From the IMG/VR virus record IMGVR_UViG_2648501730_000017: a DNA stretch of 8,455 bases; one strand, given 5' to 3'. This document shows positions 1 to 8,455 of the stretch, piece after piece (within the stretch, counting starts at the first letter, position 1; each line of letters begins with the position of its first letter). The DNA comes from a virus. Its lineage: Duplodnaviria; Heunggongvirae; Uroviricota; Caudoviricetes. The translations under genes and the position numbers were made by a program. Under the pieces are notes generated by a model. That model made no database searches and had not been told where the DNA came from. It worked only from the letters and a program-made list of their open reading frames with translations.

Positions 1-1545
1 TCACAGATAAAACACTCTCCAGGAAACCCGGGGCGGTTCAACCATATATTTGAGAGCACTTATCGCCTGCTGGGCGGATATTACTTTCATTAAAGGATAG
101 TGTTTAAAAACAATGCCATTCATAAAATAGATATCACAGGTTTTATTATCCGTATTAATTATGATTTTTTCGAATGTTTTATAGGCAAGTGTACGGCATA
201 ACTCTCGTCCATTTTTACTGGTTAAGTCAATAGCATAAAAATCACTGAATGAATTTACACCTTTACTCTTCAAAGTTTTCAATGATACCGAAGCCCTTCT
301 TAATTCCTTATCTAATAGTCTTATTTTCTCTGCTATAGCGGTAACTTCAGGCGCGACAGACAATGCAACGATTAAATTATTAATTTTCATCTGAAGCTCA
401 ATAATTTTTAACTCTAAAGTTTCATTAGCATCTTTCTTGTTTTCAACTGGTTGAATTTTGCTACAATTAAAAAGCAATTCATTAATGATATTATAATCAA
501 CCAAATCTCTTTTTATTGATGGCCTGTCACATCGATGTAATCTTCTCATCGGACAAACATAATAGCCATGCAAACTTCCAGATACCGCATGAACAATCAT
601 GGTATTACCACAAGCCTCACACTTCATAACTGTTCGAAGTAGATTTATTAGCATAGGATTCTTGCTACTATTGCTAATACCAAAAGGTGCCAACCGAATT
701 TCCTGTACAGCGTAAAACAAATCATCTGATATGACTCTGGGATAATAGCCAGCGATTTCACTTATCCCTTTCCCTCTTGCACGATATGAAGGTACGCATA
801 TACCTATCAGAGCTTTATTCGCTAATAATTTTTCAATTACAGAAGGTCCCCATGCACTTTCTTTTCCTGAGAAATTCTTTACAGCATGATCATTTAAATA
901 CTTGGCTATTGCATTCAATGAGCGCCTTTCCATCCTGAGTTTAAAAATTAGCTCAATAGTTTTCACCCTGTCGGGGTCTGGAACAAAAGCCGTTCTTTTG
1001 TCATCTAAGGAGAGCCATCTCGGACAAGACGCCGTCATAATCGTACCTGATTCCAGTGCATCCTGCCGTTTTTTCTTCCATGATAATTTAACCCGACTTG
1101 ACTTTATCTCGCTTTCTTCATTTGCCCTTTGTGCTATAAGTATGGCTTTTATTAATGAATATGGCTCATTCAAAGAGTCAATGTTATAGACTGTATTGTC
1201 GCAAAGAGTTATAACATCAATACCGTGATTCAAAATCAATTTCAGACGTTCAATCGCTTCACCGACTTTTTCTCTTGAAAGTCTGTCCAGACTTTCAACT
1301 AACAATGTAGTTCCTGGCAATATATAACCATGCTCTATAGCATCTAAAAATTCCGAAAAAGCTCCTGATTGTGCATGCTTTCCTTTGAATGCACTTAATC
1401 CTAAATCTTCATATGTTATGGTATCAAGATAATAATCACTATTTACCTTTAACCATTCAGCAATAAGTCTTCTCTGTCGGTTTAATGAGTCACCAGACAT
1501 CTGACCTGGTGATGAAAATCGCATATATGCTATGGCTTTTTTCAT
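1..1545 (-). CDS. ybcK: Large serine recombinase (resolvase-type catalytic domain, recombinase domain, Cys-rich zinc ribbon); complete 514 aa, stop codon at positions 1-3
   Basis: Supplied translation starts MKKAIAYMRFSSPGQ...SLNRQRR, a serine-recombinase catalytic motif; 514 aa length and the Cys cluster CEACGN...YYVCPMRRLHRCDRP fit large serine recombinases. Position next to emrE matches the emrE-ybcK arrangement of DLP12 as I recall it. Gene is visibly AT-rich relative to the lambda-like genes. Confidence 0.8.
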   Translation of the reverse strand: MKKAIAYMRFSSPGQMSGDSLNRQRRLIAEWLKVNSDYYLDTITYEDLGLSAFKGKHAQSGAFSEFLDAIEHGYILPGTTLLVESLDRLSREKVGEAIERLKLILNHGIDVITLCDNTVYNIDSLNEPYSLIKAILIAQRANEESEIKSSRVKLSWKKKRQDALESGTIMTASCPRWLSLDDKRTAFVPDPDRVKTIELIFKLRMERRSLNAIAKYLNDHAVKNFSGKESAWGPSVIEKLLANKALIGICVPSYRARGKGISEIAGYYPRVISDDLFYAVQEIRLAPFGISNSSKNPMLINLLRTVMKCEACGNTMIVHAVSGSLHGYYVCPMRRLHRCDRPSIKRDLVDYNIINELLFNCSKIQPVENKKDANETLELKIIELQMKINNLIVALSVAPEVTAIAEKIRLLDKELRRASVSLKTLKSKGVNSFSDFYAIDLTSKNGRELCRTLAYKTFEKIIINTDNKTCDIYFMNGIVFKHYPLMKVISAQQAISALKYMVEPPRVSWRVFYL

Positions 1546-1730
1546 GGTGACACCTGCTAACGTATGCTTTTATAAACCTTAGTGGTGGGATATAATTTTT
1601 GTTTAATTTTTATTTAAAAAGACAATTAAGGTCACATTATCTTGAATATACAACAATAATCGTATTGCAATTTTCTTACGCCATAATCTTGAAAGCACAA
1701 AAGAACACATAAAAAAAATAAAGACATTAA

Positions 1731-1771
1731 CAAAAAGCATAAAACGAGGCTCATATAAATATAAGAGCCTC
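1731..1771 (-). terminator. Putative intrinsic terminator about 30 nt downstream of emrE
   Basis: Inverted repeat GAGGCTC (1746-1752) / GAGCCTC (1765-1771) with a 12-nt loop; on the minus strand the hairpin is followed by GTTTTATGCTTTTTG (T-rich). Confidence 0.5.
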
Positions 1772-1802
1772 CATATTTTAGTCGTTTAGAAACAAATTAT
1801 TT

Positions 1803-2135
1803 TTAATGTGGTGTGCTTCGTGACAATAGATTAATAACCAACACACCGGCACAAATTAACATCATGCCTATAATGGCTGGCAGGTCCAGCCGTTGGCCGA
1901 AAAGTCCCCATGACAGTAAGCTAATCAGGACAATACCGACTCCTGACCAGATAGCATAAGCAATCCCTGTAGGAATATAAGCCAGCGTCTGAGCTAATAA
2001 CCAGAATGATGCACAATAACAAATAATTGTACCAACAGATGGCCATAACCGTGTAAAACCTTCTGAAAACTTCATTAAGGTTGTACCAATGACCTCTGCA
2101 AGTATTGCACCACCAAGATAAATATAAGGGTTCAT
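1803..2135 (-). CDS. emrE: SMR-family multidrug efflux transporter EmrE (110 aa)
   Basis: Translation from the internal Met reads MNPYIYLGGAILAEVIGTTLMKFSEGF...LLSRSTPH, matching E. coli EmrE as recalled, including the conserved membrane Glu in helix 1. AGGAAAG ribosome-binding site 8-14 nt upstream of this ATG; the 128-aa ORF in the track is an upstream extension. Confidence 0.9.
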   Translation of the reverse strand: MNPYIYLGGAILAEVIGTTLMKFSEGFTRLWPSVGTIICYCASFWLLAQTLAYIPTGIAYAIWSGVGIVLISLLSWGLFGQRLDLPAIIGMMLICAGVLVINLLSRSTPH

Positions 2136-2202
2136 AGCATATTCTTTCCTGTTCAAACTGGAGAGAATTGTACTACAGTTTGAACTCAACTCACCTGTTT
2201 CA

Positions 2203-2504
2203 TCATTGTGTACCCATTGATGTTCTTTTATATACCCTCAATACCCGTTTCATCGCGGCACTCTGGCGACACTCCTTAAAAATCAGATTCGTGCTCACCT
2301 TTCCTTCCCGTTCTTCTCTGGTAGCGAACCGGTAATACACCGTTCGCCAGACCTTACCATCAACGACCAGGATTCCTGCCCGGCCATTTTAGCCGCAGCC
2401 TGATTTATGCTGGTTACGGTTGCGCCTGTTACCGCGGCAACGTCCTGCGCACAGAAGTTCTTATGAGTCCCCAGGTAATGAATAATTGCCTCTTTGCCCG
2501 TCAT
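2203..2504 (-). pseudogene. ren: ren (lambda Ren-like) inactivated by a frameshift; first ~41 codons intact, remainder readable in another frame
   Basis: ORF 2295-2504 begins MTGKEAIIHYLGTH...VTGATVTSINQAAAKMA as lambda Ren does, then diverges. Shifting frame near 2385 (GCCGGGCAGG where lambda, as recalled, has GCCCGGGCAGG) restores Ren-like ...KVWRTVYYRFATREEREGK...KECRQSAAMKRVL. Start overlaps the P stop by 4 nt as in lambda. Confidence 0.6.
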
Positions 2505-3202
2505 ACACTTGCTCCTTTCAGCCCAAACTTAGCTTTGATTTCTGCGATCTTCGCCAGAGCCTGTGCACGATTTAGAGGTCTACCGCCCATGGCAGGAAGT
2601 TGTTTTACTGGTTCAGGTATAGCCTCACCACGGTTAATTCGCGCGATCATACAGGACAGTTCATCGGCAGCCTTGCGCCGTAATTCCGCGTCAGTCAGCG
2701 CATTGGCTCGCATGTTCTGGTACAGGTTGGTAACCAGCCAGTAGTGCGCGTTTGATTTCCACGGATAAGACTCTGCATCCGGATACAGCCCGCGCTTCCG
2801 GCAATACTCGTAAACCATATCAACCAGCTCGCTGGCGTTTGGCAGCCCGGCGGTAACGGATGCTTCTTCCCGGCACCAGGCGACAAACTGCCCGGGTGAT
2901 GGCAGGAATGGTCGATTCTGCCGACGGGCTACGCGCATTCCTGCGTTAACCTGTTCCATTGTGGTGATCCCGTTTTCCCGGAAAGCCAGAACCCACTGGC
3001 GGCGGATTTCGTTCAGTTCATTCTGGTCACGGTTAGCCAGGCTCGCCGGGAAAGTTGCCAGTAACTGGCTGAACACACCGTTGATGATCTGCGCTACCTG
3101 CTGTACCTGTGGCTTTTCGTCGTACTGTTCCGGCATGTTGTTGGCGATCCGACGCATCTGCTCACAGTCAAAGTTAACCATTTGTGCGGCGATGTTTTTC
3201 AT
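2501..3202 (-). CDS. P: Lambda-type replication protein P (DnaB helicase loader), 233 aa
   Basis: Translation MKNIAAQMVNFD..EQMRRIANNMPEQYDEKPQVQQVAQIING...AKFGLKGASV is near-identical over its full length to lambda P as recalled; same 233-aa length; start overlaps the O stop. Confidence 0.9.
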   Translation of the reverse strand: MKNIAAQMVNFDCEQMRRIANNMPEQYDEKPQVQQVAQIINGVFSQLLATFPASLANRDQNELNEIRRQWVLAFRENGITTMEQVNAGMRVARRQNRPFLPSPGQFVAWCREEASVTAGLPNASELVDMVYEYCRKRGLYPDAESYPWKSNAHYWLVTNLYQNMRANALTDAELRRKAADELSCMIARINRGEAIPEPVKQLPAMGGRPLNRAQALAKIAEIKAKFGLKGASV

Positions 3203-4128
3203 AAATCCACCCCATAAATCCAGTCAGTGTTTGTCAGGTCCAGTTTTGATTTTCCGGCTGTCACTCCAGCCTGTTGCTTGTTACGGTTGATTTCGAGTTG
3301 GGTCCACTTGTCACGGAGTTTGGCCGGACTTAGCACGTTACCGGACCAGAAGTTGTCCTGGCATGCCCAGCGGAACAGCACGCACATGTCGCGGTGGTTA
3401 CGTCCGTCACGTTCACGCATCAGGCGGATATCGTTAGCCCACCCTGCAAAATTCGGTTTTCTGGCTGATGGCGCGATGGTCTTCACCATGTCAAACATCC
3501 ACTCTGCGGCGGTCAGGTCTTCTGCTGTCCCCCACTTGCTGCCGCTCTGAATTGCAGCATCCGGTTTCACCACAGGAAGATCGTTTTCTGGTTGGTCAGA
3601 GGATTCGCCAGAATTCTCGGACGAAAAAGGTTTTATATTGTCTTTTGTTAGTTTGTCTTTTGTGTTTACCTGATTCGGGTAAACGCCTTTACCTGATTTG
3701 GGTAAACTTTTTTTACCTGATTCAGGTAAATTTACCTCTTTCAGGTAAACTTTATTTTTCTTACCTGATTCGGGTAATGTTGACCATTCACTGACCACAT
3801 TATTAATGCCGGTATTCCGCCCGCTCTGAATAAAAATCCCACGCTTTACCAGAACACTTTTTGCAGCAGAACACTTGTGCGGCAATATCCCGGTTAATTC
3901 GGAAAGTTGCTCGTTGCTAACCCAATCCAGTTTTTTATTAAAGCCATATGTTTTGCGCATGACAGCCAGAAAGACCAGAAGCTGGTGCTGTGTTAATCCG
4001 GCCAGCATCACAGCTTCCAGCAACTCATTTGCAATGCGCGTATAACCATCATCGAGATCTGCCACGCGCGGCTCCTTTTGTGCCGCATCCGGCACTGGAA
4101 AATTGAATATCTCAGCAGTGTTTGCCAT
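3199..4128 (-). CDS. O: Lambda-type replication initiator O (309 aa): N-terminal iteron-binding domain diverged from lambda, C-terminal P-interacting domain lambda-like
   Basis: C-terminal half ...ESSDQPENDL.VVKPDAAIQSGSKWGTAEDLTAAEWMFDMVKTIAPSARKPNFAGWANDIRLMRERDGRNHRDMCVLFRWACQDNFWSGNVLSPAKLRDKWTQLEINRNKQQAGVTA...LDLTNTDWIYGVDL matches lambda O as recalled. N-terminus from the internal Met (MANTAEIFNF...VADLDDGY) aligns with the lambda O start and has a GGGAGG ribosome-binding site 5 nt upstream; the 339-aa track ORF is an upstream extension. Confidence 0.85.
   Translation of the reverse strand: MANTAEIFNFPVPDAAQKEPRVADLDDGYTRIANELLEAVMLAGLTQHQLLVFLAVMRKTYGFNKKLDWVSNEQLSELTGILPHKCSAAKSVLVKRGIFIQSGRNTGINNVVSEWSTLPESGKKNKVYLKEVNLPESGKKSLPKSGKGVYPNQVNTKDKLTKDNIKPFSSENSGESSDQPENDLPVVKPDAAIQSGSKWGTAEDLTAAEWMFDMVKTIAPSARKPNFAGWANDIRLMRERDGRNHRDMCVLFRWACQDNFWSGNVLSPAKLRDKWTQLEINRNKQQAGVTAGKSKLDLTNTDWIYGVDL
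3667..3779. repeat. Replication origin iterons: five ~18-bp direct repeats inside O, flanked by an AT-rich stretch (about 3620-3666)
   Basis: Read directly: TACCTGATTCGGGTAAAC (3667-3684), TACCTGATTTGGGTAAAC (3690-3707), TACCTGATTCAGGTAAAT (3714-3731), TACCTCTTTCAGGTAAAC (3733-3750), TACCTGATTCGGGTAATG (3762-3779). Each has TACC...GGTA internal dyad symmetry. Location inside O next to an AT-rich tract mirrors lambda ori. Confidence 0.8.
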
Positions 4129-4214
4129 AATTCCTCCCGCAATGAGTGTGTTACGATTTGCACCTGAAAGTCGGTTCTGTTCCAGCAGACCGGCTTTCGC
4201 CATTTCTGAACCTG

Positions 4215-4754
4215 TCATATCGCCCCCAGCATGGTAGTAACCATCGCCATCAATGGACCAGCCAGATCTGGGTCCACACGAAACATCGACACAATACCTT
4301 CACTAATTTCCTTCAGTTTCTGGTGGCGTGGTGCGTTGAGAATGACAGCCTGTTTTGCCTCACTGAGTTCCTTTTCCATTTCAGCCAACCTAGCCATGAA
4401 GCTATCCTGCTCAACCAGGTAACCGCGATATTCCAGCGGTAGTACCGCCAGAATTGCCGGGGTCAGTTCACGCACGTTATTTCGGTATTTTTCAGAATCG
4501 AATTTGTTATCGAGGAAGCGGAACAGCTTCTGGCGTGCACGGCTGACATCATCAGGGAAATCGATGGTGCCGCCGCCCTGCTCCCGATACTCATTCACAA
4601 TGAGTGTGGCAACGACATCCTGATTATCTACAGCCGACCAGGCGCGGACGGCATCACGGATTTTTTCGTGGCCTGGCACCTGTTTTGTTTGAGAACGATT
4701 TATCACCGCAGTCGGGCTAAATCCGCTAGTCTGTTGGTATGTAAGTGGTTGCAT
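4215..4754 (-). CDS. YdaT-like protein (about 179 aa) in the cII position; probable CII functional analogue
   Basis: Sits between the cro-like gene and O where lambda has cII, but is about twice the length of lambda CII. GGAG ribosome-binding site 7 nt upstream of the ATG. Family assignment is from recalled Rac / CP-933P ydaS-ydaT arrangements, not from a search. Confidence 0.5.
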   Translation of the reverse strand: MQPLTYQQTSGFSPTAVINRSQTKQVPGHEKIRDAVRAWSAVDNQDVVATLIVNEYREQGGGTIDFPDDVSRARQKLFRFLDNKFDSEKYRNNVRELTPAILAVLPLEYRGYLVEQDSFMARLAEMEKELSEAKQAVILNAPRHQKLKEISEGIVSMFRVDPDLAGPLMAMVTTMLGAI

Positions 4755-4798
4755 AATTGACTCCTTTAGTTTGAATTGACTGTTAAGTTGATTGCTTA

Positions 4799-4811
4799 TT
4801 GTTAAAGAGCG
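4799..4811 (-). promoter_or_regulatory. boxA-like element in the nutR position, just downstream of the cro-like stop
   Basis: Minus-strand sequence CGCTCTTTAACAATAAGCAATCA contains GCTCTTTAACAAT, matching the E. coli rrn boxA (TGCTCTTTAACAATTTATCA, as recalled) at 13 consecutive positions; placement matches lambda nutR. Confidence 0.5.
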
Positions 4812-4823
4812 TGAAATGGAAAT

Positions 4824-5054
4824 TTAAGCTGCGTTCTTTTCGGTGTGTGGAAACAACTTCGGAAGATCCGGGCGAATCTGGTATGCCTTCACTACTCCAC
4901 CAGTAGCCGTAACAATGCTGCCGACATGTTCAGGGGATACCTTTGCTTTGTTGTGAAGCCACTTATAGACGGCCTGCTGTGAAACTTCGCAAGCAGCGCC
5001 CAGTTTCTTTTGTGAACCAACGATATTGATCGCTGTTTTGATAGCTGGGTTCAT
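4824..5054 (-). CDS. Cro-like small HTH regulator (76 aa), first gene of the rightward early operon
   Basis: Small protein transcribed divergently from the cI-like repressor; GGAGG ribosome-binding site 5 nt upstream of the ATG; the segment QKKLGAACEVSQQAVYKWL is helix-turn-helix-like. Confidence 0.6.
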   Translation of the reverse strand: MNPAIKTAINIVGSQKKLGAACEVSQQAVYKWLHNKAKVSPEHVGSIVTATGGVVKAYQIRPDLPKLFPHTEKNAA

Positions 5055-5081
5055 AACAACCTCCGTGGTTAATTTGAATCA

Positions 5082-5110
5082 AGATTAAAACTATGGTTGT
5101 TTTTAGTCAA
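5082..5110 (-). promoter_or_regulatory. pR-like promoter: -35 TTGACT, 17-nt spacer, -10 TAATCT, with a 17-bp operator filling the spacer
   Basis: Reverse complement of 5082-5110 reads TTGACT-AAAAACAACCATAGTTT-TAATCT, about 25 nt upstream of the cro-like ATG. Confidence 0.5.
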
Positions 5111-5150
5111 CAACCATTTTCGTTTGATGGAATAAAACCTTGGTTGTACA
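5087..5150. promoter_or_regulatory. OR-like tripartite operator region between the cro-like and cI-like genes
   Basis: Three related sites: 5087-5103 AAAACTATGGTTGTTTT (strongest, in the pR spacer), 5107-5123 TCAACAACCATTTTCGT (weaker), 5134-5150 AAAACCTTGGTTGTACA (next to the cI-like start). Shared half-site AAAACAAC / GTTGTTTT. Confidence 0.5.
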
Positions 5151-5158
5151 TTTGGACT

Positions 5159-5848
5159 ATGAAAACAACACTCTCAGAAAGACTTAAAGAAGCCAGATTA
5201 GCGCGAGGCCTTACACAAAAGGCGCTTGGGGATTTGGTCGGGGTTAGCCAGGCTGCTATTCAGAAAATCGAAACAGGGAAAGCTAATCAAACAACTAAAA
5301 TCGTGGAGATCGCGAACGCTTTGGGTGTGCGCGCAGAATGGTTATCTTCTGGCGTTGGAAATATGTCAGACAGTACAGTGCAACCAATACAATCAACTGT
5401 CAGCCATTCCAAATACTTCAAGATTGACGTTCTTGATATAGAAGTCAGTGCTGGGCCGGGAGTCATCAACCGTGAGTTTGTAGAAGTTCTACGCTCGGTT
5501 GAGTACTCGTTTGACGATGCTCGTCACATGTTCGATGGTAGGAAGGCGGAAAATATCCGCATCATTAACGTGCGTGGTGACAGCATGTCAGGAACGATCG
5601 AACCAGGTGATCTGCTGTTCGTTGATATCACAGTTAAATCTTTCGACGGTGATGGTATCTATGCGTTTCTGTACGACGACACAGCCCATGTAAAGCGCCT
5701 GCAAATGATGAAGGATAAGCTGCTGGTCATCTCTGATAACAAAAGCTACTCACCGTGGGACCCGATCGAGAAAGACGAGATGAACCGGGTGTTCATCTTC
5801 GGTAAGGTTATTGGGAGCATGCCGCAGACATATAGGAAGCATGGGTAG
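5159..5848 (+). CDS. cI-like prophage repressor (229 aa): N-terminal HTH-XRE domain plus C-terminal S24 LexA-like autopeptidase domain
   Basis: From the internal Met: MKTTLSERLKEARLARGLTQKALGDLVGVSQAAIQKIETGK (HTH), then GDSMSGTIEPGDLLFVD with a downstream HVKRL Lys, the Ser/Lys dyad of S24 peptidases. No Shine-Dalgarno before 5159, and a weak TTGATG / TACATT promoter would start transcription near the ATG (leaderless, as lambda cI from pRM). The 5093 start would overlap operator 1. Confidence 0.8.
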   Translation: MKTTLSERLKEARLARGLTQKALGDLVGVSQAAIQKIETGKANQTTKIVEIANALGVRAEWLSSGVGNMSDSTVQPIQSTVSHSKYFKIDVLDIEVSAGPGVINREFVEVLRSVEYSFDDARHMFDGRKAENIRIINVRGDSMSGTIEPGDLLFVDITVKSFDGDGIYAFLYDDTAHVKRLQMMKDKLLVISDNKSYSPWDPIEKDEMNRVFIFGKVIGSMPQTYRKHG

Positions 5849-5969
5849 TACCAATTAAAAATTATCAACTGGGCATTGTGCTCATTCAGTAAAGAACTAA
5901 TTCCTATCTTTGCTCTAGGTAGTAATATTAAGCCACCGCAATAATATCTTTACCTAACGGCGTAAGAAT

Positions 5970-5996
5970 CCCGGTCACCGTGCCGGGTTTTCTTTT
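5970..5996 (+). terminator. Putative intrinsic terminator about 120 nt downstream of the cI-like gene
   Basis: CCCGG (5970-5974) pairs with CCGGG (5983-5987), followed by TTTTCTTTT. Confidence 0.45.
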
Positions 5997-6091
5997 GCCC
6001 TCCCCTCATCACACACACCGTTAAAAAAACCACCATAACCTCGCTTCAGTTATCGCTATGCGATTCAAGTCACAAAATAAATCCATCCTAA

Positions 6092-6166
6092 ATACAACCA
6101 GTTATATCTAAAACAACCAATAAAACAACTTTTGTTGTTGACGATAAAACAACTATGGTTTTAAAT
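6092..6166 (+). promoter_or_regulatory. OL/pL-like operator-promoter cluster driving the kil-gam-bet operon
   Basis: Repeated AAAACAAC motifs (ACAACCA 6094-6100; AAAACAACCA 6110-6119; AAAACAAC-TTTT-GTTGTTG 6122-6140). Promoter TTGACG (6138-6143), 17-nt spacer, TTAAAT (6161-6166); the spacer carries AAAACAACTATGGTTTT (6146-6162), near-identical to the operator in the pR spacer. Confidence 0.5.
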
Positions 6167-6443
6167 AAGTTCATCGCAACAACACAACGATACGGCAACT
6201 ACCTGATTCACCGTTGCGATGACCGCTTAGATCCGCAGTTTGAATTTCAGCAGGCTTCGGGGAGTGCGAGGGGTGAAACGGACGCGTGAACGTCGGTGTG
6301 ACCAGCTGAAATTAACTCAACATTTCATACCTTAGTCGCTTCAACGAGGCGGCTTAGTTATGACAACCGGCGGCCATCCACCGCCTGAATACGCGCAGAA
6401 GTCTCTATATGTTCAGCAGCCCAGCTTACGGGCAGGAGTTTTT

Positions 6444-6650
6444 ATGGTTCATCAACATTATGGAACGCAGACCGTTAATCGAGGTGCGGTCATGCCAGGA
6501 ATGCTGGTCAAACACAAAGATGGTACCTGGACTGCATCAGCTAATTTACGCGGACGGCTTTATCTGCATCGCGGCATCGAGCGCACTTATACCCGTGATT
6601 TGCTCGTGGAAGTTTTTCTCGACGGACGCGGTAACGGCCTGAATCACTAA
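6444..6650 (+). CDS. Small protein (68 aa from this start) in the kil position; possibly a Kil-like host-killing / division-inhibitor protein, identity unverified
   Basis: AGGAG ribosome-binding site 5 nt upstream of ATG 6444; alternative in-frame starts at 6492 (GAGGTG upstream) and 6501. The ORF ends 76 nt before gam, where lambda has kil. I cannot reliably recall a homologue. Confidence 0.3.
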
Positions 6651-6725
6651 TCCCCTTTCCTGTTTTCCTAATCAGCCTGGCATTTCGCGGGCGATATTTT
6701 CACAGCCATTTTCAGGAGGTCAGCC

Positions 6726-7022
6726 ATGAACGCTTATTACATTCAGGATCGTCTTGAGGCTCAGAGCTGGGCGCGTCACTACCAGCAGATCGCCCGTGAA
6801 GAGAAAGAGGCAGAACTGGCAGACGACATGGAAAAAGGCCTGCCCCAGCACCTGTTTGAATCGCTATGCATCGATCATTTGCAACGCCACGGGGCCAGCA
6901 AAAAAGCCATTACCCGTGCGTTTGATGAAGATGTTGAGTTTCAGGAGCGCATGGCAGAACACATCCAGTACATGGTTGAAACCATTGCTCACCACCAGGT
7001 TGATATTGATTCAGAGGTATAA
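6726..7022 (+). CDS. gam: Gam (RecBCD nuclease inhibitor), 98-aa short form
   Basis: [94 protein letters not shown] matches the C-terminal 98 residues of lambda Gam as recalled. AGGAGG ribosome-binding site upstream. No in-frame ATG upstream before a TAA at 6669-6671, so only the short form can be made. Confidence 0.85.
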
Positions 7023-7027
7023 AACGG

Positions 7028-8455
7028 ATGAGTACAGCACTCGCAACGCTGGCAGGGAAGCTGGCTGAACGTGTCGGCATGGATTCTGTCGACCCACAGG
7101 AACTGATCACCACTCTTCGCCAGACGGCATTTAAAGGTGATGCCAGCGATGCGCAGTTCATCGCATTGCTGATCGTCGCCAACCAGTACGGCCTTAATCC
7201 GTGGACGAAAGAAATTTACGCCTTCCCTGATAAGCAGAACGGCATTGTTCCGGTGGTGGGCGTTGATGGCTGGTCCCGCATCATCAATGAAAACCAGCAG
7301 TTTGATGGCATGAACTTTGAGCAGGACAATGAATCCTGTACATGCCGGATTTACCGCAAGGACCGTAATCATCCGATCTGCGTTACCGAATGGATGGAGT
7401 TGCACGACAAGCGAAAAGCAGAACTCTGGCGAGTAGAAAAGCTAGGGGATTTACCTGATGTCACTTTTGAAGAGGCCTGCCTAAGATGGCTTGAGGAAAA
7501 AGCTGATAAAAAATCTCTCGATTCAGATAAAAGCCGGATTGAGTTCTGGCTTGAACATTTTGAGGGTATAAGGCTTAAAGATATCTCGGAGGCAAAGATT
7601 TACTCTGCTGTAAGCAGAATGCATAACAGAAAGACGAAAGAAATATGGAAACAGAAAGTTCAGGCCGCCATCAGGAAAGGTAAAGAACCGCCTGTTTATG
7701 AACCAAAGCCAGTATCAACTCAGACAAAGGCAAAGCATCTTGCCATGATAAAGGCCATTCTCCGTGCTGCAGAACGCGACTGGAAGTGGCTGGAAAAAGC
7801 GCCTGTCATCAAGATACCAGCGGTCAGAAACAAGCGAGTCAGATGGCTGGAAAAGGAGGAAGCAAAACGCCTTATTGATGAGTGCCCCGAACCACTGAAA
7901 TCTGTCGTCAAGTTTGCGCTGGCAACTGGTCTGAGAAAGTCGAACATCATAAATCTGGAATGGCAACAAATCGACATGCAGCGACGAGTTGCCTGGGTGA
8001 ATCCAGAAGAGAGCAAATCAAACCGCGCCATTGGTGTGGCGCTGAACGATACCGCCTGTAAAGTGTTGCGTGATCAAATAGGCAAGCATCACAAATGGGT
8101 GTTTGTACATACCAAGGCGGCTAAGCGAGCAGATGGAACATCAACGCCTGCGGTCAGGAAGATGCGCATCGACAGCAAGACATCATGGCTATCAGCTTGT
8201 CGTCGTGCAGGAATTGAAGATTTCCGTTTCCATGACCTCAGACACACCTGGGCAAGCTGGCTGATTCAGTCAGGCGTCCCATTATCAGTGCTTCAGGAAA
8301 TGGGCGGATGGGAGTCCATAGAAATGGTTCGTAGGTATGCTCACCTTGCGCCTAATCATTTGACAGAGCATGCGAGGAAAATAGACGACATTTTTGGTGA
8401 TAATGTCCCAAATATGTCCCACTCTGGAATTATGGAGGATATAAAGAAGGCGTAA
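7028..8455 (+). CDS. In-frame fusion: Bet (lambda Red-beta) residues 1-123 joined to a tyrosine integrase (IntD / P21-family like) lacking roughly its first 35 residues; probable deletion product that removed the bet 3' end, exo, xis and the int 5' end
   Basis: Residues 1-123 ([122 protein letters not shown]) match lambda Bet as recalled. From about nt 7397 the protein switches to integrase sequence (ELHDK.KAE.WRV.KLG..PD.TFE.AC.RWLEEKA.KKSLD.DKSRI.FWL..F...), with the catalytic Arg in TGLRKSN, HDLRHTW and the Tyr in MVRRYAHL. Gam stop to bet start geometry (aggtataaaacggATG) is as in lambda. Confidence 0.8.

Follow-up and report, generated by a model that had tools for sequence, protein, structure and literature searches.

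The analysed stretch of DNA (8,455 nucleotides, hereafter the window) corresponded to positions 54–8508 of the E. coli draft contig JHSQ01000002.1 (286 kb, assembly GCA_001266015.1). It covers the early-left, immunity and replication region of a temperate, lambda-like prophage whose Int/Xis module is of the P22 type. The genes are arranged in the order ybcK (serine recombinase), ylcJ, emrE, a frameshifted ren, P, O, YdaT-/YdaS-type genes, a repressor gene (HTH/S24), kil and gam, and gam is followed by the chimeric bet'-'intD ORF that is the subject of this report (Table 1). In the source contig, the int stop codon is followed after 16 nt by the tRNA-Arg gene argU (anticodon tct), and fimZ and the sfm fimbrial genes lie beyond it. 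argU is the attachment site of the cryptic prophage DLP12, and the chimeric gene adjoins this attachment site at the tRNA gene. An Rfam scan of the window at the gathering threshold returned zero matches.

Several further features of the window were recorded. Positions 1–37, together with the preceding 53 bases of the contig, formed the terminal end of an IS3-family element that was identical over 93 nt to an element annotated in E. coli strain C5. The element sits 19 nt before the normal ybcK stop codon and replaces the last residues of YbcK. Because the contig ends inside this IS element, the late half of the source prophage was not visible. The ren gene (2203–2504) was split into two overlapping ORFs of 69 and 45 aa; the annotation of strain 64 has this frameshift too, but ren is intact (100 aa) in strain C5 and phage PhiR34_1. 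Within positions 4215–5054, a YdaS-type protein (76 aa) was encoded at the cro position and a YdaT-type protein (179 aa) at the cII position, as in the Rac prophage; phage records label these proteins simply Cro and cII. The multidrug efflux gene emrE (1603–2189), with ylcJ and ybcK, has the position that these genes occupy in PhiR34_1 (L006 9016–11000), where they lie between ren and the nin region. Since PhiR34_1 carries all three, these "DLP12" cargo genes travel on phage genomes deposited as complete.

Table 1 Coordinates of the chimeric gene, its parts and the neighbouring early-left and immunity features in the window.
Feature	Position	Strand	Remarks
cI-type repressor	5093..5848	+	HTH and S24 peptidase domain matches
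Candidate oL/pL	6088..6165	+	AAAACAACnnTGGTT-type repeats; promoter-like site TTGACG-17 nt-TTAAAT, read by eye
kil	6444..6650	+	KilR-type cell division inhibitor; leftward operon shared with gam
gam	6726..7022	+	directly upstream of the chimera, same leftward operon
Chimeric bet'-'intD ORF	7028..8455	+	475 codons and TAA; ATG start; stop formed by the last bases of the window
bet 5' part	7028..7398	+	codons 1–123; native start kept; 5 nt past the gam stop
Deletion junction GGA	7396..7398	+	3-nt microhomology of both parental sequences, from comparison with strain 64 and PhiR34_1
intD 3' part	7397..8455	+	codons 36–387 and stop; zero mismatches to strain 64 intD
Tyrosine recombinase catalytic domain	7841..8356	+	aa 272–443; R303, H402, R405, W428, Y437

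Anatomy of the chimeric ORF and its junction

The sequence-only reading had described the 475-aa ORF as the first 123 residues of Red-beta joined to a tyrosine integrase, and the database comparisons bore this out. Residues 1–123 were identical to lambda Red-beta (PDB 7UJL) at 122 of 123 positions, with D96N as the one substitution. The NCBIfam model bet_lambda (TIGR01913) matched with 114.1 bits, against an equivalog cut-off of 76.95 bits, and the match stopped at profile position 128 of 188. The DNA of the bet part was 100% identical, through nucleotide 7398, to the full-length bet of strain 64. A Pfam match to RecT (PF03837, cut-off 24 bits) was partial as well, covering aa 24–118 and profile positions 5–130 of 198 with 64.8 bits. 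By comparison with strain 64, the chimera is composed of Bet 1–123 and IntD 36–387.

The Phage_integrase match in Pfam was complete (aa 272–443, profile positions 1–171 of 172, 159.5 bits), and the catalytic Arg, His-x-x-Arg and Tyr predicted earlier were located at R303, H402-x-x-R405 and Y437; the His/Trp residue that completes the set in heterobivalent (lambda/P22-type) phage integrases is W428. Residues 36–387 of the integrase were identical to those of the integrase of an active phage, and against solved structures the integrase part matched the catalytic domains of HP1 integrase and of Xer recombinases only. The N-terminal segment said to be missing was indeed absent, comprising IntD residues 1–35 in the comparison with relatives. 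The reading frame, also claimed to be intact across the junction, runs as one ORF of 475 codons from ATG to TAA. A separate truncated Int would have no likely start, since near the junction none of the internal in-frame start codons comes with a plausible Shine-Dalgarno sequence.

The possibility that the first 123 residues are not Bet but the N-terminal domain of a natural integrase, which the sequence-only reading had itself raised, was rejected. These residues are Red-beta, as judged from their near identity to 7UJL, the bet_lambda score above the cut-off and DNA identical to strain 64 bet, and zero points in favour of an integrase domain were found. Full-length IntD homologues are 387 aa long and have a conserved N-terminus of their own that is distinct from Bet.

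Compared base by base with strain 64, the window matched without a single difference up to and including 7398 for bet, and over 7396–8455 for intD. At the crossover the parental sequences have only GGA in common: one reads …GAATGGATGGA, followed across the breakpoint by TGAATG…, and the other …GCTCAGGA, followed by GTTGCACG…. The comparison with PhiR34_1 yielded both breakpoints at identical positions. The earlier placement of the junction at nt 7394–7400 (TEWM joined to ELHDK) proved exact, and the alignment to bet and the integrase, proposed to define the breakpoint and any microhomology, found GGA at 7396–7398.

The window is 2,675 bp short in comparison with strain 64, and 2,677 bp short when PhiR34_1 is the reference. 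The missing sequence contains bet codons 124–261, exo, five small ORFs (DUF1317, DUF1382, orf61, TraR-like and DUF4222), xis, the int upstream region and int codons 1–35. Both exo and xis, noted as absent from the sequence alone, fall inside the interval deleted relative to the relatives. The length of the deletion offsets the frame difference between bet and int and so yields an in-frame join. Any two co-oriented genes that a deletion joins will be in frame with a probability of 1 in 3, and the open frame is therefore unremarkable. An IS-mediated deletion was also considered, as strain C5 has an IS3-family element in the interval, and was rejected because no IS sequence is left at the junction.

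Undeleted relatives and the rarity of the junction

The nearest undeleted prophage is that of E. coli strain 64 (NZ_CP142590.1), with 99.9% identity over window positions 38–8455. It matched the window in two pieces spanning 11,092 bp, and this comparison with a syntenic undeleted prophage, suggested as a check by the sequence-only reading, revealed a single 2,675-bp loss. Eight features are annotated in strain 64 from bet to intD, namely full-length bet (261 aa), a lambda-type exonuclease, DUF1317, DUF1382, a hypothetical protein, a TraR/DksA-like protein, DUF4222 and a short HTH pseudogene. The packaging, head, tail, lysis and Q genes of the strain 64 prophage are all complete, and its IntD is 100% identical to the integrase of the isolated phage Turner. 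IntD is 74% identical to Int of the Shigella phage SfII.

Phage PhiR34_1 (PV340559.1, 44.6 kb, host given as K-12 MG1655) was colinear with window positions 2295–7398 in one piece with 99.1% identity. Its gene order is the same (int, xis, DUF4222, TraR, orf61, orf63, exo, bet, gam, kil, cI, cro, the cII-position gene, O, P, ren, emrE, ylcJ and ybcK). PhiR34_1, Turner, ev243 and 2G7b have full-length bet, exo, xis and int, whereas the window is without 2.68 kb of this module. Literature searches on GCA_001266015.1 and on the PhiR phages found nothing relevant.

The state of xis before the deletion was assessed from the same relatives. In strains 64, C5 and ZH177, the PGAP annotation has a truncated HTH pseudogene of 66 nt at the xis position. 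The ORF from the xis ATG is open for 123 codons, overlaps the start of int (L002 11202–11573), lies wholly inside the deletion and has excisionase-type HTH matches. It was found full length and 100% identical in the isolated phages ev243, 2G7b and Turner and in several PhiR phages. A further 98 phage records have it with 60–80% identity, and 161 of the 163 records that matched span 80% or more of the ORF. In SfII, an annotated excisionase gene adjoins int. Because the 123-codon ORF is 100% identical in isolated phages, we conclude that the xis that was lost was an intact P22-type gene and that the pseudogene label is an annotation artefact, probably one that is systematic in DLP12-type prophages. 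The identity to Turner Int, the intact xis of phages and the complete genes of the strain 64 prophage together argue that close relatives have a functional version of the module that the deletion struck.

The junction is a singleton, seen in one draft genome. The exact 475-aa protein is on record once (JHSQ01000002.1), and the bet–int junction occurred in 0 of 5,426 complete E. coli genomes, 656 of which keep at least 80% of the undeleted bet-to-int interval. The junction 40-mer GCGTTACCGAATGGATGGAGTTGCACGACAAGCGAAAAGC was absent from the metagenome, viral and species-representative genome collections, and a search with a 61-aa junction peptide gave a best coverage of no more than 49%. Among the 120 best-scoring homologues, none had RecT and integrase together in the precomputed annotation.

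This isolation has to be weighed against the possibility of an assembly or sequencing artefact, in which the source genome would have a normal bet-exo-...-xis-int arrangement and the contig would join bet to int falsely. A junction that is found once, in a draft short-contig assembly, and is missing from the 5,426 complete genomes and every other collection searched is what such an error would leave, and E. coli often has several lambdoid prophages with similar bet genes (median of 2 matching places per genome) between which it could arise. Against this, the parental sequences have just 3 nt in common at the join; overlap or k-mer assemblers require a much longer shared sequence for a false join. 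Both flanks are also error-free up to the junction, the contig extends over 286 kb through the correct chromosomal neighbours, and finished genomes (ZH177 and K-12) have real, independent deletions in this interval. We consider a false join unlikely.

Prophage decay strikes the bet-to-int interval repeatedly, with independent deletions in other lineages. The only complete-genome record covering >80% of the ORF was that of ZH177, which has a different deletion and a full-length intD; there (L001 9047–9568) bet is truncated after ~98 codons and abuts an ASCH gene fragment. K-12-lineage genomes have intD, an exonuclease fragment (exo') and P side by side, which is yet another deletion.

Three proteins (P0004, P0005 and P0006) represent intD ORFs with foreign or missing N-termini, for example MPVHLT-ELWRVEK… (86 member sequences), which suggests further independent 5' disruptions, some of which may be contig-end fragments. 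One of them, the 502-aa P0006, covered 97% of the query and was considered as a second fusion; it was rejected, as its N-terminal part, a 170-aa leader, is unrelated to Bet, which makes P0006 another intD ORF with its own disruption at the 5' end. The protein collection clustered at 90% identity places the chimera together with two short, unrelated peptides, one of which is the cluster representative, and for this reason the chimera itself was not returned by homology searches. The grouping looks like a clustering artefact, and the cluster mates (P0002 and P0003, unrelated peptides of 39–40 aa) were discarded as independent support.

Predicted expression, function and fate of the prophage

The AAAACAACnnTGGTT-type repeats of the candidate oL/pL recur between the repressor gene and cro. 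Repeats of the type AAAACAAC(n2)TGGTT and a 16-bp palindrome, AACAACTTTTGTTGTT, flank the repressor gene at 5054–5147 and 6088–6165, and the two regions are candidate oR and oL operators, respectively. A terminator-like hairpin with a T-run was found past the repressor gene at 5970–5987. The ~600 bp between the repressor gene and kil had no N-like gene, and a sigma-70 consensus scan called zero promoters in 4700–8455, the candidate pL included. From its repeats and promoter-like site, 6088–6165 may act as oL/pL. If so, the chimeric ORF, being downstream of kil, gam and this region, would be kept silent in the lysogen by the repressor together with the rest of its operon, and transcribed only on derepression.

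In the structure of Red-beta(1–177) with DNA, the template strand is held by R128, W143, H153, K154 and R161, and a conserved motif is made up of the finger loop (residues 130–139), a 3-10 helix and helix alpha5 (PMC9512822). The DNA-contact residues, the finger loop and the C-terminal domain of Bet are all beyond residue 123 and are gone from the chimera. The minimal DNA-binding construct of Red-beta comprises residues 1–177, whereas the Bet part of the chimera ends sooner, at 123; the annealase core is incomplete and the partner gene exo is missing downstream. On this basis the Bet part should not anneal DNA and would be inactive as an annealase.

On its own, the C-terminal part of lambda Int can bind and cleave core sites and resolve Holliday junctions that have already formed, but it cannot carry out recombination, for which the N-terminal domain is needed in cis (PMC9791396). 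The integrase part of the chimera resembles this arm-less C-terminal domain, the lambda fragment C65; IntD is instead a P22/SfII-type integrase, and we therefore infer the domain boundary. Of the 35 IntD residues lost, 26 are invariant among 23 homologues that are 77–82% identical to the reference overall, which argues for an essential role of this N-terminal segment. The IntD N-terminus gave a sub-threshold match to DUF6538. A PDB profile search with the IntD homologue alignment returned catalytic domains only (HP1 Int, XerA and XerD) and left the N-terminus unmatched, and the mean pLDDT of AlphaFold2 models (50.5 for an IntD homologue and 45.7 for the chimera) was too low to define an N-terminal domain. 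By analogy with lambda Int, residues 1–35 would be the arm-binding segment, and the Int part would be unable to integrate or excise.

The cognate Xis gene, which in relatives lies upstream of int and overlaps it, is absent from the window. With the N-terminal Int segment and xis both lost, the prophage should be unable to excise and is probably stranded in the chromosome. The chimera itself would be a non-functional pseudogene product, encoded by an ORF that has not acquired stop codons yet.

Alternatively, the fusion could be a functional new protein under selection, such as a recombinase that works independently of arm sites or a dominant-negative inhibitor that targets Red or Int of related phages entering the cell. 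In favour of this, the frame is intact, the chimera starts at bet's own translation start, and its complete catalytic domain does not differ from that of an active phage's integrase; an open frame, however, has a prior probability of 1 in 3, and the halves are identical to their parents and are too recent for selection or decay to show. The fusion is in no other genome, no RecT-plus-integrase annotation was present among the 120 best-scoring homologues, the Bet fragment is without its DNA-binding half, and the C-terminal domain of lambda Int alone does not recombine. We regard selection for a new function as very improbable. Equally improbable is a more specific scenario in which the chimera, derepressed by the SOS response, would bind and cleave core sites in an unregulated way and independently of arm sites, oligomerize via its Bet fragment and hinder the Int or Red functions of superinfecting phages; if this were true, the chimera would be an accidental exclusion factor against related superinfecting phages.

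A single deletion event very probably produced the in-frame bet–int pseudogene fusion and grounded this lambda-like prophage at argU. The parent would have been a lambda-like temperate prophage of E. coli, inserted at the tRNA-Arg gene argU and equipped with a P22-type Int/Xis module. One illegitimate recombination at GGA, by replication slippage or end joining, would have removed the 2,675 bp. The chance in-frame join would have placed a 475-aa Bet(1–123)-IntD(36–387) product under the bet start signals, in the repressor-controlled leftward operon, and the loss of the Int N-terminus and Xis would have grounded the prophage and left the ORF as a pseudogene.

Decay of the DLP12 type

DLP12 of E. 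coli K-12 (argU; intD, xisD, exoD', emrE and ybcK) has the same attachment site and integrase family as the prophage described here, and the DLP12 cargo genes emrE, ylcJ and ybcK are also present in the window. K-12 DLP12 was likewise grounded by a deletion in the int-to-replication interval. Compared with DLP12, the window prophage has a deletion of its own, which joined bet codon 123 to int codon 36 and gave an in-frame chimera instead of separate fragments; kil, gam, the immunity region, O and P are all retained. DLP12-type prophages occur in ~74% of strains (PMC6379469).

The locus is a case of ordinary, strain-specific prophage decay, one more example of a familiar type of deletion that grounds prophages, and its significance outside the source strain is small. 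For annotators it carries a warning, as the intact-looking 475-aa "integrase" with a RecT domain would be a pseudogene fusion and no new domain architecture. It offers a clean and datable case in which one microhomology deletion would have grounded a lambda-like phage that was apparently active and left a prophage of the DLP12 type, with parental sequences known to the base in prophages and isolated phages alike.
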